Both the position numbers and the translations under genes were made by a program. 5,460 bases of DNA from a virus (taxonomy: Duplodnaviria; Heunggongvirae; Uroviricota; Caudoviricetes). The stretch lies in IMG/VR virus record IMGVR_UViG_2778261570_000010, positions 1 to 5,460 of that record, one strand, 5' to 3'. Position 1 is the first letter of the stretch; every line of letters starts with the position of its first letter. Below are positions 1,868 to 5,460 of this stretch, in pieces. The notes beneath the pieces are model-generated. The model was not told where the DNA came from, searched no databases, and saw only the letters and a program-made list of their open reading frames with translations.

Positions 1868-2509
1868 TCATTGCCCGGACTTCCGACAAATCCCGGCAAC
1901 CATATCCCGGTGCTTGTTCAGCTCCCGCAGCGCGGCGCAGACTCGCTCCCACTTCTGGACATGACTTTTCGCCCGGCGCAGTTCGCGGTTTGCCATATGC
2001 AGCGATGGTAAAATCAGGCCATTCGCTCGCGTTTCAGTAAACGATGGCAACGATTGCACAATATCAGCCACAGTTTCTGTTTTAATATCTTCCTGTGTTG
2101 CAGCTTCCTGTGCTGGTAAATTACCGCCCGGCATGCAGTAACGAAATTTACCGTTCTGATTAACGCGAATCAGACAACCTTTGCTGATTGCCATTGCCAG
2201 TGATGAGTTCACCCTGCGGGAAGTAATTCTGAACATCAATGCAAGTTCATCAGCAGCTTTAGGACCATGCCGTTCTATCGCCTCAATCAGCATCTGCGCT
2301 GTCACTTTCGGTGCCTGTGTCACAGTGTCATTTTCGTCGCTTTTTTCATTTGTCAGCCACCACATCGAGCCTTTGTTATCTGCCCACCCCCGACGCTTCA
2401 GCTTCCACAGTTCGTTAATCGCTTCATCGCGCGTCATTCCCAGACGTGCTGTAACTTCCTGTGATGAGGCTTTTCCCATCGCTTTCAGTGCGTCAAAAAC
2501 AGTCTCCAT
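1868..2509 (-). CDS. Prophage protein of unknown function with a winged-helix-like N-terminus; possibly DUF1627 family
   Basis: 213-aa ORF with ATG at 2509-2507, preceded by GGAGG and a 6-nt spacer; stop TGA at 1868-1870. The N-terminal METVFDALKAMGKASSQEVTARLGMTRDEAINELWKLKRRGW looks like a small winged-helix DNA-binding fold. The DUF1627 assignment is from memory and unverified. Confidence 0.7.
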   Translation of the reverse strand: METVFDALKAMGKASSQEVTARLGMTRDEAINELWKLKRRGWADNKGSMWWLTNEKSDENDTVTQAPKVTAQMLIEAIERHGPKAADELALMFRITSRRVNSSLAMAISKGCLIRVNQNGKFRYCMPGGNLPAQEAATQEDIKTETVADIVQSLPSFTETRANGLILPSLHMANRELRRAKSHVQKWERVCAALRELNKHRDMVAGICRKSGQ

Positions 2510-2541
2510 AAATTTCCTCCCGGTAAAAATTACTTCTCAAA

Positions 2542-3207
2542 TCAGACAAACCCAGCCGCTTTCCGGCGTTCATACTCCTGTTTCAGCAACTCAATTGGTG
2601 TTGGCCCCGACGGGCGTTTTGGTGCTGCCAGTTGCCGCCGTACGGGCGGAACGCTGAGGCCGTTACCAACATGCTTTGCCCATTTTGTAAGCTGCCGTTC
2701 CGCAAGTCGTTTTAACTCCCCCTCGGTCATCTGCCGCTCAATCCCCTTTGAACGCATCTCGAGGCAAATGTGATACAGCACAGGCTGAGACCACGGGTAT
2801 TTATCGCTCCCGTCGTATCGCCAGGACTCGTTGCGCCAGCGGCGGTACTCCTCCATCACGTTATCCACCGTCAGACCAAATGGATTTGCCCCACTCTCCG
2901 AAATCAGCGCAACAAACTCAGCCAGGTCCGGAGGCCATGTTTCACCCGCCCGGCAGCGGTCCATGCACTGGCGGCAGACCTGTCGGATTTGCTGCTCAGT
3001 CATCGCACCAATCTGTGCAATCCAGAGCTTCGAAGGTGCGGCCCCGTTCTTCTGGGTCCAGCGGTTCGAATAAACCTCCCCCATGAGTTCCCACAGCTTC
3101 CACGCCGTTTCCGTCGAGGATAAATCCGTTTTCACGTTCCCACTGCTCACGTGCTGCCCGAATTTCCTGAACTGCCCGTGATGCGGTGTCACCTGGTGCT
3201 GCTGCAT
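2542..3207 (-). CDS. Replication protein P-like (lambda P family, DnaB helicase loader)
   Basis: 221-aa ORF. Aligns by eye with remembered lambda P: the YPW motif, TEGELKRLAERQL versus TDAELRRKAADEL, and a similar C-terminal tail. ATG at 3207-3205 is preceded by AGGGGG and a 6-nt spacer. That start lies 212 nt inside the O-like ORF in another frame. Internal ATGs at 3084 and 3003 are alternatives, but they would remove residues that align with lambda P. Confidence 0.75.
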   Translation of the reverse strand: MQQHQVTPHHGQFRKFGQHVSSGNVKTDLSSTETAWKLWELMGEVYSNRWTQKNGAAPSKLWIAQIGAMTEQQIRQVCRQCMDRCRAGETWPPDLAEFVALISESGANPFGLTVDNVMEEYRRWRNESWRYDGSDKYPWSQPVLYHICLEMRSKGIERQMTEGELKRLAERQLTKWAKHVGNGLSVPPVRRQLAAPKRPSGPTPIELLKQEYERRKAAGFV

Positions 3208-4036
3208 GGTTTACCCCCTTGCTGACTGGTTTAACCTGCGCCCTGACGTGATTTACGTGACGGGCGAATTTCTGCTCCCACTGAACCTGCGTGAACACTT
3301 TGCCCTCATCGCTCCAGTAATCCCGGAATGCGGCAAGTTCAGCAGGTGTAAATTCCGGCTCCGGCAGAGCCACTCCCCACAGAGCCGCCCGTCGTCGAAA
3401 ATCCCGTGACGGATGCCAGCTATCGGTCATCGGAAATTTTCCGATGGGTTCGCTCAGGCCATCCAGGAATACGGGTGGCACTGCCTGTAACGACAAAACT
3501 TCCTGCTCACTGGTCGGAGCACTCTCGCGTGCGTTATGTGTGGGGTTTAGATCTTTGGGTTCCTTTGGGTTCCGTGATCCGTTTTTGGGTGTCTTTGATG
3601 GAAAATTTGGGTGTCTTTGGTTATTTTCCATGCAGCTAAGAGTTCCGTTTTTGGGTCTGTTTTGTGCTGAAACATAACCATTTTCGGTACTGTTTTTATT
3701 AACAGTACCAATTTTACCCACCTTTAAAGACTCCCGTTTTTGGGTGTATTCAGGCTCGGCAACACTTTCTTCTACACCGATAAGTCGGTACACTACGATT
3801 TGCTTTGTTCGGCCTTTTCTCTCACCGGTATCAACAATTAACCCAATCTCCATCAGGTGTCGTAAGCTGTCCTGCACAGTCTTTTTGTTCAGTTCCGTTA
3901 CTTCTGCCAGGGCAGATACAGACGGGTATGCACACAAATCGGCACCGCACATATCAGCAAGCCAGGTCAATACTGACTTACTGGATGAACTGCCGGTTTT
4001 CACCTTTTTAGCCCATCGTAGTGCATCGATACTCAT
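2996..4036 (-). CDS. Replication initiator (O-like): N-terminal HTH DNA-binding domain, low-complexity linker, C-terminal DnaT-like ssDNA-binding domain
   Basis: Start chosen at ATG 4036-4034 (MSIDALRWAKK…), preceded by AGGGG and a 5-nt spacer. The longest ORF begins at a TTG at 4111 with no SD. The C-terminal region (GKFPMTDSWHPSRDFRRRAALWGVALPEPEFTPAELAAFRDYWSDEGKVFTQVQWEQKFARH) closely matches the C-terminal domain of E. coli DnaT as I remember it. The linker has repeated PKNG motifs encoded by the iterons. Stop TGA at 2998-2996. Confidence 0.8.
   Translation of the reverse strand: MSIDALRWAKKVKTGSSSSKSVLTWLADMCGADLCAYPSVSALAEVTELNKKTVQDSLRHLMEIGLIVDTGERKGRTKQIVVYRLIGVEESVAEPEYTQKRESLKVGKIGTVNKNSTENGYVSAQNRPKNGTLSCMENNQRHPNFPSKTPKNGSRNPKEPKDLNPTHNARESAPTSEQEVLSLQAVPPVFLDGLSEPIGKFPMTDSWHPSRDFRRRAALWGVALPEPEFTPAELAAFRDYWSDEGKVFTQVQWEQKFARHVNHVRAQVKPVSKGVNHAAAPGDTASRAVQEIRAAREQWERENGFILDGNGVEAVGTHGGGLFEPLDPEERGRTFEALDCTDWCDD
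3551..3752. other. Putative phage origin of replication: iteron cluster (core TTTGGGT, longer form CCGTTTTTGGGTGTCTTTG) plus AT-rich segment with a 9-bp inverted repeat, inside the O-like gene
   Basis: Direct repeats seen at 3554-3560, 3564-3570, 3579-3597, 3606-3619, 3645-3663 and 3734-3752. AT-rich stretch at 3664-3730 contains GGTACTGTT-ttttat-AACAGTACC (3686-3709). The layout (iterons plus AT-rich region in the initiator's interdomain linker) mirrors ori-lambda inside gene O. Confidence 0.55.
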
Positions 4037-4559
4037 ACGAACCCCTGGCAGACATTTGTTTATCTGCAAAGTAATATTGATATTGCTGACGATACGCATG
4101 CTTGAAAGCAATAGCTTTTTCTATAAGCTCGTCAGTCTCACGTTCCACAACAGCTGGATCCGCAAAAAGCAGCCCGGACTCCACCACATCGCCATATTCT
4201 TTGTTTAATCCGGCGATCATGTACGTAATGCTTTTTCCATCACTGATCTCACGATACAACCTGAAATCACTAATTCGGATAGCCTCCATAATTGCCGGAA
4301 TCAGCGCCGTGAATTTTTTCCGCTTATCCCTGGTGTCGATAGCTTTCCAGCGTTCGAATATCTTCACCCGGTTAACGCCCAGCGCCCGTTGATCAACCTC
4401 GCCATCATTAAACGTGACGCGTTGAACATCGATGTTCGGGCGTTCTTTCAGAGCCCAGAATGCTTCCGTGATTAATATCGTCGCCTGCTCCTGTGTCATT
4501 CCTGGTCGACATATCCAGGCATCCAGAGCCTCACGAGCCTGTTCAGGAGTGATTTTCAT
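4008..4559 (-). CDS. YdaT-family protein (prophage cII-position regulator)
   Basis: 183-aa ORF immediately downstream of the Cro-like gene, overlapping its stop by 17 nt. ATG at 4559-4557; stop TAA at 4010-4008. Resembles remembered Rac YdaT (MKI… N-terminus; the LIPAI…RL segment). Its position matches cII in lambdoid early-right operons. Confidence 0.65.
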   Translation of the reverse strand: MKITPEQAREALDAWICRPGMTQEQATILITEAFWALKERPNIDVQRVTFNDGEVDQRALGVNRVKIFERWKAIDTRDKRKKFTALIPAIMEAIRISDFRLYREISDGKSITYMIAGLNKEYGDVVESGLLFADPAVVERETDELIEKAIAFKHAYRQQYQYYFADKQMSARGSYEYRCTTMG

Positions 4560-4773
4560 TGTTCAACCGCCCCGCCCGCTTCGTCTTACGATATTCATCA
4601 TAAACTTTGGGATCATACTGAAGCTCCCCGCCAGATGCCTCCTGTAGACGCATCGCGCGACCTTCGGGAACTAAATCCCCTTTCCAGCTATAAAGCGAAG
4701 CCAAACGAATACCTGCTGCTTGTGCAAGTTTTGTTTTTGAACCGAAATACAAAAGAGCGTCAGTTTTAAGCAT
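4543..4773 (-). CDS. dicC: Cro-like HTH repressor, DicC-type
   Basis: 76-aa ORF divergent from the CI-like gene; ATG at 4773-4771 preceded by AAGGTG and a 7-nt spacer. The sequence (MLKTDALLYFGSKTKLAQAAGIRLASLYSWKG…) has the Cro fold signature and matches my recollection of E. coli DicC. The gene symbol is from memory and needs BLAST confirmation. Confidence 0.8.
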   Translation of the reverse strand: MLKTDALLYFGSKTKLAQAAGIRLASLYSWKGDLVPEGRAMRLQEASGGELQYDPKVYDEYRKTKRAGRLNNENHS

Positions 4774-4856
4774 TTAAAACACCTTTATTGTTAGTCATAA
4801 CTAACAAGATAGATGTTAACAAAAACATAGTCAATACGATTTAGCATTAGCTAACT
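4774..4856. promoter_or_regulatory. Divergent dicC/dicA control region with two 14-bp palindromic operator candidates and a candidate leftward promoter
   Basis: Palindromes TTAGTCATAACTAA (4791-4804) and TTAGCATTAGCTAA (4841-4854) read directly. On the minus strand: -35 TTGACT (plus 4834-4829), 17-bp spacer, -10 TATCTT (plus 4811-4806). The first palindrome overlaps the predicted transcription start of dicC; the second ends 2 nt before the dicA ATG. Confidence 0.5.
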
Positions 4857-5264
4857 ATGGAAACAAAAAATTTAACTATCGGCGAACGCATCAGGTATCG
4901 TCGGAAAAACCTCAAACACACCCAAAGGTCTCTTGCTAAAGCCCTGAAAATCTCCCATGTGTCTGTATCACAATGGGAACGGGGTGATAGTGAACCTACA
5001 GGGAAGAACCTTTTTGCCCTCAGCAAAGTATTGCAATGCTCACCAACATGGATTCTATTTGGCGATGAAGACAAGCAACCAACACCACCTGTTGAGAAGC
5101 CAGTTGCCTTATCCCCCAAAGAACTAGAGCTCCTTGAGCTGTTTAATGCACTGCCAGAATCAGAACAGGATACCCAGCTCGCCGAAATGCGAGCTCGAGT
5201 AAAAAACTTCAATAAACTCTTTGAAGAATTACTAAAAGCCCGTCAGCGGACAAATAAAAGATAA
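4857..5264 (+). CDS. dicA: CI-like phage repressor of the DicA type (XRE-family HTH, no S24 peptidase domain)
   Basis: 135-aa ORF, ATG 4857, stop TAA 5262-5264. N-terminal HTH (…HTQRSLAKALKISHVSVSQWERG…) with a helical C-terminus. The sequence matches my recollection of E. coli Qin-prophage DicA, with divergent Cro-like partner. Symbol from memory, unverified. Confidence 0.85.
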   Translation: METKNLTIGERIRYRRKNLKHTQRSLAKALKISHVSVSQWERGDSEPTGKNLFALSKVLQCSPTWILFGDEDKQPTPPVEKPVALSPKELELLELFNALPESEQDTQLAEMRARVKNFNKLFEELLKARQRTNKR

Positions 5265-5286
5265 CATCATCAATGAGTTATCTTTT
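5256..5286 (+). terminator. Weak AT-rich hairpin (AAAAGATAAC … GTTATCTTTT) overlapping the dicA stop codon; possible terminator
   Basis: 10-bp inverted repeat with an 11-nt loop, ending in TTTT, seen in sequence. The stem has only two G-C pairs, so stability and function are uncertain. Confidence 0.25.
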
Positions 5287-5324
5287 ACCACATCAATTAT
5301 GTTAGCTATAGCATACAAAATCAC

Positions 5325-5353
5325 TTGACCGATATGTTAGTCATGGCTAATCT
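5325..5353 (+). promoter_or_regulatory. Candidate rightward promoter (-35 TTGACC, 17-bp spacer, -10 TAATCT) overlapped by a third operator-like palindrome TTAGTCATGGCTAA (5337-5350)
   Basis: Motifs read directly. The palindrome shares the TTAGY-N4-RCTAA pattern with the two sites in the dicC/dicA intergenic region. Location matches the position, as I recall it, of the DicA-repressed dicB-operon promoter downstream of dicA in E. coli K-12. Confidence 0.45.
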
Positions 5354-5430
5354 TGTTTGCATCAACACACCGCACGGTGTTCTCAGCAAACAGTTCCGCT
5401 ACCCCAGCGTTAAGGGGAAATGAGGTCAGC

Positions 5431-5460
5431 ATGGATACTATCGATCTTGGCAACAACGAA
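5431..5460 (+). CDS. 5' end of a small ORF (MDTIDLGNNE…), truncated by the window edge; possibly ydfA-like, first gene of the rightward operon
   Basis: ATG at 5431 preceded by GAGG (5422-5425) and a 5-nt spacer. Only 10 codons are visible. The ydfA resemblance is from memory of the K-12 gene order (dicA, ydfA, ydfB, ydfC, dicF, dicB). Confidence 0.4.
   Translation, partial: MDTIDLGNNE

Follow-up and report, generated by a model that had tools for sequence, protein, structure and literature searches.

Among the described systems closest to the locus studied here, the prophage Qin of E. coli K-12 is reported in the literature to be without replication genes. Its repressor DicA has no Ala-Gly bond and is controlled by the antirepressor Rem, and operators in the dicA-dicC control region have been described. 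The PPompW prophages of EHEC and EPEC (GenBank LC567818-LC567841) are present in 44% of 767 complete genomes; they excise and circularise on mitomycin C, and the genomes of O145:H28 PPompW were excised but undetected in particles (Nakamura et al. 2020, 10.1101/2020.11.04.367953). For YdaT, a reassignment as a DNA-binding CII equivalent has been published (PMC9986795, PMC8630535, PMC5917428).

The window, i.e. the whole stretch of DNA that was analysed, comprises 5,460 nt, and the region studied reaches from the stop codon of the DUF1627 ORF (1868) to that of dicA (5264) (Table 1). All six ORFs in this range are open and of full length, with Shine-Dalgarno sequences, coupled starts and family matches. 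The leftward (minus) strand carries, in this order, dicC, the YdaT/CII-like gene, the O-like initiator, the P-like loader and DUF1627, and dicA lies on the plus strand. Intact YdaT-like, O-like and P-like genes beside immunity genes had already been recognised by an earlier inspection without database searches (the sequence-only reading), and this description is borne out. Very probably, the region combines the immunity switch with the early-right (replication) operon of a lambdoid prophage, of a type that many E. coli strains harbour at ompW or yccA. The DUF1627 protein has exact copies in 137 blocks of public assemblies, and the ydfA gene, which starts at 5431, is cut by the window end. At the gathering threshold, Rfam returned no RNA family inside the window; its matches to sok, DicF and tRNAs all come from a wider related locus (L005).

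Table 1. Genes and control elements of the immunity and replication region (positions refer to the window).
Feature	Position	Strand	Description
dicA	4857-5264	+	135 aa; CI-type repressor; Pfam HTH_3 (1.3e-16)
dicC	4543-4773	-	76 aa; Cro-type regulator; Pfam P22_Cro (1.7e-11)
YdaT-like gene	4008-4559	-	183 aa; Pfam YdaT_toxin (PF06254); phrog_163
O-like initiator gene	2996-4036	-	346 aa; Pfam DnaT (9.4e-18); phrog_1032
P-like helicase loader gene	2542-3207	-	221 aa; Pfam Phage_lambda_P (PF06992); phrog_109
DUF1627 (YdaW-like) gene	1868-2509	-	213 aa; Pfam PF07789 (2.1e-66); last gene in the range
dicA-dicC divergent control region, OR-like	4774-4856		palindrome and dicC promoter-like site
OL-like operators and dicBp promoter region	5296-5354	+	between dicA and ydfA
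Putative origin inside the O-like gene	3554-3752		six TTTGGGT iterons and A+T-rich stretch

At the amino-acid level, DicA and DicC do not differ from their counterparts in K-12 MG1655 (100% identity), so that the immunity genes are true dicA and dicC, as had been supposed. Both intergenic regions flanking dicA lie inside the segment 4280-5460, which shows 97.7% DNA identity to K-12. The control region between dicA and dicC contains the palindrome TGTTAGTCATAACTAACA at 4789-4806 within the inverted repeat I2 (4778-4817), with TGTTAG half-sites at 4789 (+) and 4801 (-). A dicC promoter-like site (TTGACT-17-TATCTT, 4834..4806) was found on the minus strand. Since the counts of the promoter and terminator scans did not exceed the shuffle expectation, only this site was used, and it was kept because it coincides with the operator palindrome. 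Further TGTTAG sites at 5300 and 5335, together with a repeat (D15) and a palindrome (I4), are located to the right of dicA, where TTGACC, 17 nt and TAATCT at 5325-5353, read directly from the sequence, are homologous to K-12 dicBp. With divergent dicA and dicC orthologs and shared operators on both sides of dicA, the region is an immunity region of the Qin type.

From this arrangement we infer which protein binds which site. DicA, as a short CI-type repressor, would bind the TGTTAG-type operators on both sides of its own gene and would thereby silence transcription in both directions, leftward from the dicC promoter and rightward from the promoter of ydfA-dicF-dicB. In the Pfam search its 135 aa matched only HTH-type families and no S24 autocleavage domain, and DicA does not belong to the SOS-cleavable repressors of the CI/LexA type. 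The mitomycin-C induction proposed earlier as a check of this prophage needs a caveat for this reason. Inactivation most likely proceeds via a Rem-type antirepressor and not via RecA-mediated cleavage. Leftward transcription would then pass through dicC (Cro), ydaT (the CII equivalent), the O-like and P-like genes and DUF1627.

The O-like initiator, whose ATG at 4036 is preceded by the Shine-Dalgarno sequence AGGGG, is composed of an N-terminal winged-helix part, an iteron-bearing linker and a DnaT-like C-terminal domain (aa 194-272). It matches the DnaT chains 6aep and 9zbt of the PDB (about 1e-19 to 4e-20) and phrog_1032, 'replication initiation protein' (1.1e-88). Remote matches to O-like PHROGs cover only aa 1-176, HTH_36 and RP-C were sub-threshold Pfam matches, and the lambda O family (Phage_rep_O) gave no match at E<=0.01 in the Pfam search. 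Inside the gene, six TTTGGGT motifs in the same orientation start at 3554, 3564, 3584, 3606, 3650 and 3739 (spacings of 10, 20, 22, 44 and 89 nt; array 3554-3745), three of which are exact copies of CCGTTTTTGGGT. The same strand of the window has no further TTTGGGT, and at most two per 200 nt turned up in shuffled sequences, so the array exceeds chance, in agreement with the embedded origin that had been proposed. Within the array, positions 3660-3719 contain 70% A+T, and this stretch includes a perfect 9-bp palindrome, GGTACTGTT-N6-AACAGTACC (3686-3709). The iterons correspond to aa ~95-161, between the winged-helix part and the DnaT domain, and at the level of sequence this combination of same-orientation iterons and an A+T-rich stretch in the initiator linker is that of a lambdoid origin. 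Initiators of other types likewise have iterons of their own in the middle of the gene. The initiator may bind the six iterons inside its own gene and the adjacent A+T-rich stretch may open; because the O-like protein stands outside the lambda O family, the proposed binding is drawn from analogy and position.

The P-like protein reached 62.2 bits with Pfam PF06992 (cutoff 26), 1.2e-62 with phrog_109 'P-like helicase loader' over 19-220 and 6.6e-4 with lambda P in the PDB (8v9t). By profile and solved-structure similarity, it belongs to the lambda P helicase loader family, and it would recruit host DnaB, as in lambda. Its ATG at 3207 is preceded by AGGGGG.

As a side observation that is possibly worth a look, the first 212 nt of the P-like gene are, in a different frame, also the 3' end of the O-like gene (~70 codons each). 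The O tail would include the peptide EPLDPEERGR and the P start the peptide MQQHQVTPHHGQFR. Database entries conceal the overlap, as P is cut to 153 or 180 aa by annotation pipelines. Phages of Klebsiella and Vibrio share the conserved N-terminus of the P-like protein. Four phages were examined, and in each of them both frames are open; the overlap measures 212 nt in the three genomes from E. coli and Vibrio, and in the Klebsiella phage Kp4865-4 it is 215 nt when counted from the aligned P start. Given the P protein, the chance of the O frame staying open was 0.03, 0.047 and 0.008 in the three lineages, and conservation at the P wobble position is higher inside the overlap (0.61) than outside (0.49). 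The Uetakevirus relative PAS61 is without the tail, which is therefore not essential to the family. The case for a dual-coding segment, kept across E. coli, Klebsiella and Vibrio phages, that couples the synthesis of initiator and loader or supplies the loader-binding tail of the initiator, stands about evenly balanced.

Though it looks intact, the block could be a silent remnant in a cryptic prophage, its genes persisting pending decay or riding with the paa and dicBF cargo. We consider this unlikely, yet of the alternatives it deserves the most attention. The finding that O145:H28 PPompW genomes are not packaged into particles implies that related prophages may be partly defective; PPompW late regions are often degraded, some relatives carry IS insertions in the terminase, in DUF968 and near paa (e.g. 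L003, H1), and a fimbrial pseudogene directly adjoins the module. Decay is at odds with the full length of all six ORFs, with their translation signals and with the excision and circularisation of PPompW on mitomycin C. Conservation points in the same direction. A scan intended to reach distant relatives by means of an alignment of P proteins yielded 80 IMG/VR loci; the N-terminal half of the O-like gene, iterons included, is at least 96.7% identical in 45 of these, and the P-like gene is at least 91% identical in all 80. The genes of the module are intact, and the module may still fire.

K-12 Qin aligns to the window only at 4280-5460, and left of 4280 no match was detected in the 26-kb K-12 Qin region, even at word size 7; K-12 is therefore without these replication genes. 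The sequence-only reading had rightly described K-12 Qin as gutted just left of the immunity genes. It had placed ydfX and an integrase pseudogene next to dicC: ydfX is indeed there and comprises, by alignment with YdfX, the first 93 codons of the YdaT-family gene, but the following ydfW stems from an IS transposase and not from a phage integrase: it retains the 49 C-terminal residues of a 265-aa transposase ORF whose product has an integrase-core (rve_3) domain. An undeleted Qin resides at the K-12 site, next to rspB, in E. coli W, and is also found as the phage record PhiR42_1; the two flanks in this record match K-12 at 99.9% identity and enclose a stretch of 4,799 bp that K-12 has lost in a clean deletion. 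Our literature search for PhiR42_1/ECOR13 found no paper describing PhiR42_1. The deletion junction shows 2-nt microhomology. An IS-end-mediated deletion was rejected as cause of the gap: on the left, the break falls within the transposase ORF, and the microhomology is only 2 nt.

What K-12 lost decides on the further proposal that the window is an ancestral, ungutted Qin from before K-12 lost these very replication genes. The identity of the DicA and DicC proteins is compatible with it, as is a collinear order with K-12 Qin, with ydfE-dicB-dicF at 87-89%, ydfA-dicA-dicC-ydaT at 96-97%, hokD at 98% and rem-ydfU at 80% DNA identity. However, PhiR42_1 and E. coli W carry in the K-12 gap a 321-aa initiator (phrog_391) with different iterons (CATTTTGACC..GATG), followed by DUF977 and methyltransferase genes, where the window has its DnaT-domain initiator, P and DUF1627, and BLASTP revealed no similarity between the two initiators. 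With undeleted Qin, ydaT shows 96% DNA identity over 4077-4559, and at 4077, the 3' end of ydaT, the homology ends. The interval from ydaT to hokD holds a different replication-plus-cargo segment, one without relationship to its counterpart in E. coli W and PhiR42_1. Moreover, Qin is integrated at ydfJ/rspB, whereas the loci closest to the window occupy ompW or yccA and have other integrases, which is not an orthologous insertion. The idea of a more ancestral Qin is hence very improbable and was abandoned; judged by sequence comparison, the window prophage is a collinear mosaic cousin of Qin and not its ancestor.

The YdaT-like gene follows the cro-type dicC, as cII would. Its product reached 25.2 bits with Pfam PF06254 (cutoff 21) and 1.9e-41 with phrog_163, 'CII-like transcriptional activator', and a PDB sequence search gave nothing at E<=0.01. 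The published operator of the CP-933P YdaT, TTGATTN6AATCAA, was not found near the switch; matches with two mismatches occur only at 1721 and 2156, away from it, at a chance expectation of 0.42. This YdaT protein may recognise some other site. Least credible of all is a toxin-antitoxin pair of dicC and ydaT in place of the Cro/CII arm of a phage switch, which is suggested by the 'YdaS/YdaT toxin' naming and the Pfam/PGAP names 'Bacterial toxin ydaT' and 'toxin YdaT family protein' and is countered by the cro and cII positions of both genes upstream of replication genes, by the phrog_163 assignment and by the published role of YdaT.

The combination present in the window (at least 80% of the module) was detected in 42 of 5,426 complete E. 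coli genomes; in the same set, the undeleted Qin-type module occurs in 1,223 genomes and the K-12 deletion junction in 360. Loci in draft assemblies, located at ompW, are 99.7% identical to the window, the best-matching ones differing by 13-15 mismatches, and a 96.6% identical relative lies at yccA. These near-identical draft loci carry int, xis, a full-length gene for the 823-aa YdfE-type exonuclease, dicB, DicF RNA and rem. Mosaicism is apparent from the 80 IMG/VR loci, for which the scan of viral contigs had given only loci 96-98% identical: the O C-terminal half accompanies P in 78, the N-terminal half with the iterons in 45, ydaT in 44 and dicA in 7.

The region is an ordinary repressor switch and replication block of a common and annotated E. 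coli prophage, and as such already known. Intact Qin-like prophages are abundant and annotated, and the finding matters little beyond bookkeeping, in which ydfX and ydfW of K-12 can now be entered as two stumps of a single 4.8-kb deletion. Work on the native control of dicB and dicF within an entire phage is best begun with undeleted Qin (E. coli W, ATCC 8739, PhiR42_1) or with a prophage of the PPompW type, where an antirepressor, and not RecA cleavage, is to be expected as the trigger of induction.

With PPompW the window has DUF1627, P, the O-like gene, ydaT and part of dicC in common at 94.5% identity. A megablast search with the O145:H28 PPompW records left 4681-5264 unmatched, a stretch that covers dicA completely and dicC in its 5' part; their repressor region is therefore not closely related. 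The Rac-type early-right operon (ydaS-ydaT-ydaU-ydaV-ydaW) of phage Rac-SA53 shares the O C-terminal half, P and part of DUF1627 at ~92% DNA identity and has the same 212-nt O/P overlap. It differs in the N-terminal half of the initiator, in ydaT and in the repressor pair; TTTGGGT iterons are absent, and no clear iteron array was detected in its initiator gene at the settings used. In phi80, genes 15 and 14 are the counterparts, and the window loader is 49% identical to phi80 protein 14 over aa 93-221. Compared to lambda, the window initiator has a DnaT-like C-terminal domain and no Phage_rep_O match, the iteron at 3739 lies across the A+T-rich stretch from the other five, and the O and P genes overlap by 212 nt. 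The likeness to the lambda O/P module, with its ori inside O, consists in the order of cro, a cII-like gene, initiator and loader, and in iterons with an A+T-rich stretch in the initiator linker.

The window carries a replication module beside dicA and dicC which is absent from K-12. Even with a word size of 7 nt, the 26-kb Qin region of K-12 aligns to no part of the window but 4280-5460, there at 97.7% identity, and since ydfX is also truncated, K-12 is without the replication genes seen here. The DicA and DicC proteins are both 100% identical to those of K-12 MG1655 and are thus orthologs. Both points had been proposed in the sequence-only reading, and the alignment to K-12 Qin revealed neither the same replication genes in K-12 nor unrelated immunity genes. 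The observation was correct and well placed; segments of this kind are common, annotated and published.

Gene map of the window, built from a six-frame ORF list and profile searches
Feature	Position	Strand
paa, AcfC-family adhesin gene	250-1008	-
decayed fimbrial gene	about 1168-1738	-
54-aa ORF	1707-1871	-
DUF1627	1868-2509	-
lambda-P-family helicase loader	2542-3207	-
O-like initiator	2996-4036	-
YdaT-family gene	4008-4559	-
dicC	4543-4773	-
dicA	4857-5264	+
ydfA, beginning only	from 5431	+

The range 1868-5264 ends exactly at the stop codons of DUF1627 and dicA. The stop of DUF1627 and the start of the 54-aa ORF overlap; the ORF has a match to phrog_30109 (unknown function) and carries the label 'hypothetical' in relatives. 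A cargo block between the replication module and hokD (250-1738) is A+T-rich (35-41% G+C), with paa intact and the fimbrial gene frameshifted, and in 556 complete E. coli genomes the whole window, this block included, is covered to 80% or more. The left edge (1-60) interrupts a sok antisense RNA/hokD locus: in L005, a locus 99.7% identical to the window, an Rfam sok match of 118.9 bits straddles this edge (L005 12449-12624).

The start codon of the O-like protein is the ATG at 4036, preceded by the Shine-Dalgarno sequence AGGGG. PHROGs of phage 'replication initiation' proteins match the N-terminal half (phrog_1032, 1.1e-88) and residues 194-272 match the DNA-binding domain of E. coli DnaT (Pfam 9.4e-18; PDB 6aep 4e-20), while the profile search gave no match to lambda O (Phage_rep_O). 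By position and architecture it would act like O, but it does not belong to the lambda O family. Between its two domains the gene contains six TTTGGGT repeats in one orientation (3554, 3564, 3584, 3606, 3650 and 3739; spacings of 10, 20, 22, 44 and 89 nt), three of them as exact CCGTTTTTGGGT. The motif is absent elsewhere on the same strand of the window, and shuffled sequence yields at most two per 200 nt. Inside the array, 3660-3719 is 70% A+T and includes a perfect palindrome, GGTACTGTT-N6-AACAGTACC (3686-3709). Repeats and A+T-rich stretch show the classical lambdoid layout of an origin in the initiator gene and are regarded as a putative origin; the palindrome has the iteron at 3739 on one side and the remaining five on the other. 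Different mid-gene repeats are found in the initiator genes of Klebsiella phage Kp4865-4 (ACTCA(C/G)TGA) and of PhiR42_1 (five to six CATTTTGACC..GATG repeats with 23-nt spacing, L009 7522-7653), which is consistent with initiator-specific iterons.

The P-like protein exceeds the Pfam cutoff for lambda P (62.2 bits vs 26), matches phrog_109 'P-like helicase loader' over nearly its full length and matches the solved lambda P structure weakly. Its ATG at 3207, behind AGGGGG, lies 212 nt ahead of the O-like stop, and PGAP and other annotation callers give P in a shorter form of 153 or 180 aa. The two genes overlap in different frames at 2996-3207 (-), as they do in loci of other phages (L010 3501-3715, L011 1801-2012, L012 3702-3913). 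Phages of E. coli, Klebsiella and Vibrio conserve both frames and keep them open. The 221-aa P is kept end to end in Kp4865-4 (66-67% identity) and Rac-SA53, and in Vibrio phage D75 it shows 29% identity across the alignment, with a tblastn match at aa 1-132. These three phages also retain the O tail, and the overlap in D75 is the same 212 nt. In phage PAS61, P is conserved from aa 18 onward and the overlap is 4 nt only. With the P protein fixed and codons recoded synonymously, the probability of an open O frame was 0.03, 0.047 and 0.008 in three lineages, and third-position conservation of P is 0.61 inside the overlap vs 0.49 outside. These data are suggestive of dual coding rather than proof, because much of the motif conservation in the O tail follows automatically from that of P. 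The profile phrog_15931 matches the C-terminal half of O and P alike, so fused or mis-called O/P forms may exist.

The dicA-dicC spacer holds the palindrome TGTTAGTCATAACTAACA (4789-4806), overlapping a promoter-like site for dicC, and TGTTAG sites at 5300 and 5335 overlap a TTGACC-17-TAATCT promoter upstream of ydfA. All these elements fall within the 97.7% match to K-12, for which published work covers the operators and the repression of dicBp by DicA. The profile search found only an HTH domain in DicA. It is reported to have no Ala-Gly cleavage site and to be under the control of the Rem antirepressor, and dicBp of K-12 is reported not to be induced by mitomycin C (10.1101/2023.04.14.536235). 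YdaT-family proteins have been described as CII equivalents (PMC9986795); a search of the window for the published YdaT operator did not find it at the switch. A perfect 11-nt inverted repeat (5255-5287, TAAAAGATAAC ... GTTATCTTTTA), also present in K-12, begins within the dicA stop codon region; it may serve as a weak terminator or bind a protein.

The sequence-only reading had given the K-12 layout as dicC followed by ydfX and an integrase pseudogene. The order dicC, ydfX, ydfW was found, ydfX consisting of codons 1-93 of the YdaT-family gene plus three foreign codons. The supposed integrase, ydfW, is a transposase remnant, made up of the C-terminal 49 residues of a 265-aa ORF whose integrase-core (rve_3) domain explains that label. 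This parent ORF is of the rve type (PGAP label ISNCY), and ydfW is not a phage integrase. PhiR42_1 (host ECOR13), which matches the window only at 4077-5460 (96.4%), is 99.9% identical to K-12 Qin on either side of a gap. K-12 has lost 4,799 bp (positions 3405-8203 of the PhiR42_1 locus) with a 2-nt TA microhomology at the junction; this single deletion left ydfX and ydfW as its two stumps (L002, the K-12 locus, 17175-17637 vs L009, the PhiR42_1 locus, 3220-8483). Lost were most of the transposase ORF, an HTH ORF, small hypothetical genes, a methyltransferase, a DUF977 ('LygF') gene, a 321-aa initiator (phrog_391 'replication initiation O-like', 1e-91) and the 3' part of ydaT. By BLASTP this initiator has no similarity to that of the window, and the repeat array within its gene is presumably the origin of the Qin lineage. 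In E. coli W this undeleted arrangement recurs at the chromosomal site that Qin occupies in K-12, adjoining rspB, with int, xis and exonuclease intact; the CATTTTGACC..GATG array occurs there in the same region. The proposal that the window represents a more ancestral Qin is contradicted by this true undeleted form with its different initiator. Among 5,426 complete genomes, the Qin-type module (at least 80% coverage) occurs in 1,223, the K-12 junction in 360 and the module of the window in 42.

None of the complete E. coli genomes in the collection is identical to the window; the best reaches 96.6% over its full length, in a prophage adjoining yccA. An exact look-up of the DUF1627 protein led to draft-assembly loci that differ from the window by 13-15 mismatches over its whole length (99.7% identity). 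Each of them lies in a prophage adjoining ompW with the order int, xis, 823-aa exonuclease, DUF1482, dicB, DicF RNA, ydfA, dicA, dicC, ydaT, O, P, DUF1627, paa, Doc/Fic, rem, DUF968, rusA, Q and lysis genes. Prophages at ompW, termed PPompW, are lambda-like and occur in 44% of 767 complete genomes; mitomycin C causes their excision and circularisation, and none was detected in particles for O145:H28 (Nakamura et al. 2020, 10.1101/2020.11.04.367953). GenBank PPompW records share 1868-4680 with the window (94.5%), but a megablast search gave no match to its dicA end.

In a sample of 80 IMG/VR loci (P protein 96-98% identical), the C-terminal half of O is common to 78, its N-terminal half with the iterons to 45, ydaT to 44 and dicA to 7, a pattern of ordinary lambdoid mosaicism. 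A window-type prophage at ompW is collinear with Qin/PhiR42_1, with 87-89% identity at ydfE-dicB-dicF, 96-97% at ydfA-dicA-dicC-ydaT, 98% at hokD and 80% at rem-ydfU, whereas they differ wholly from ydaT to hokD. Not an ancestor of Qin, the window is a cousin which carries the same immunity cassette.
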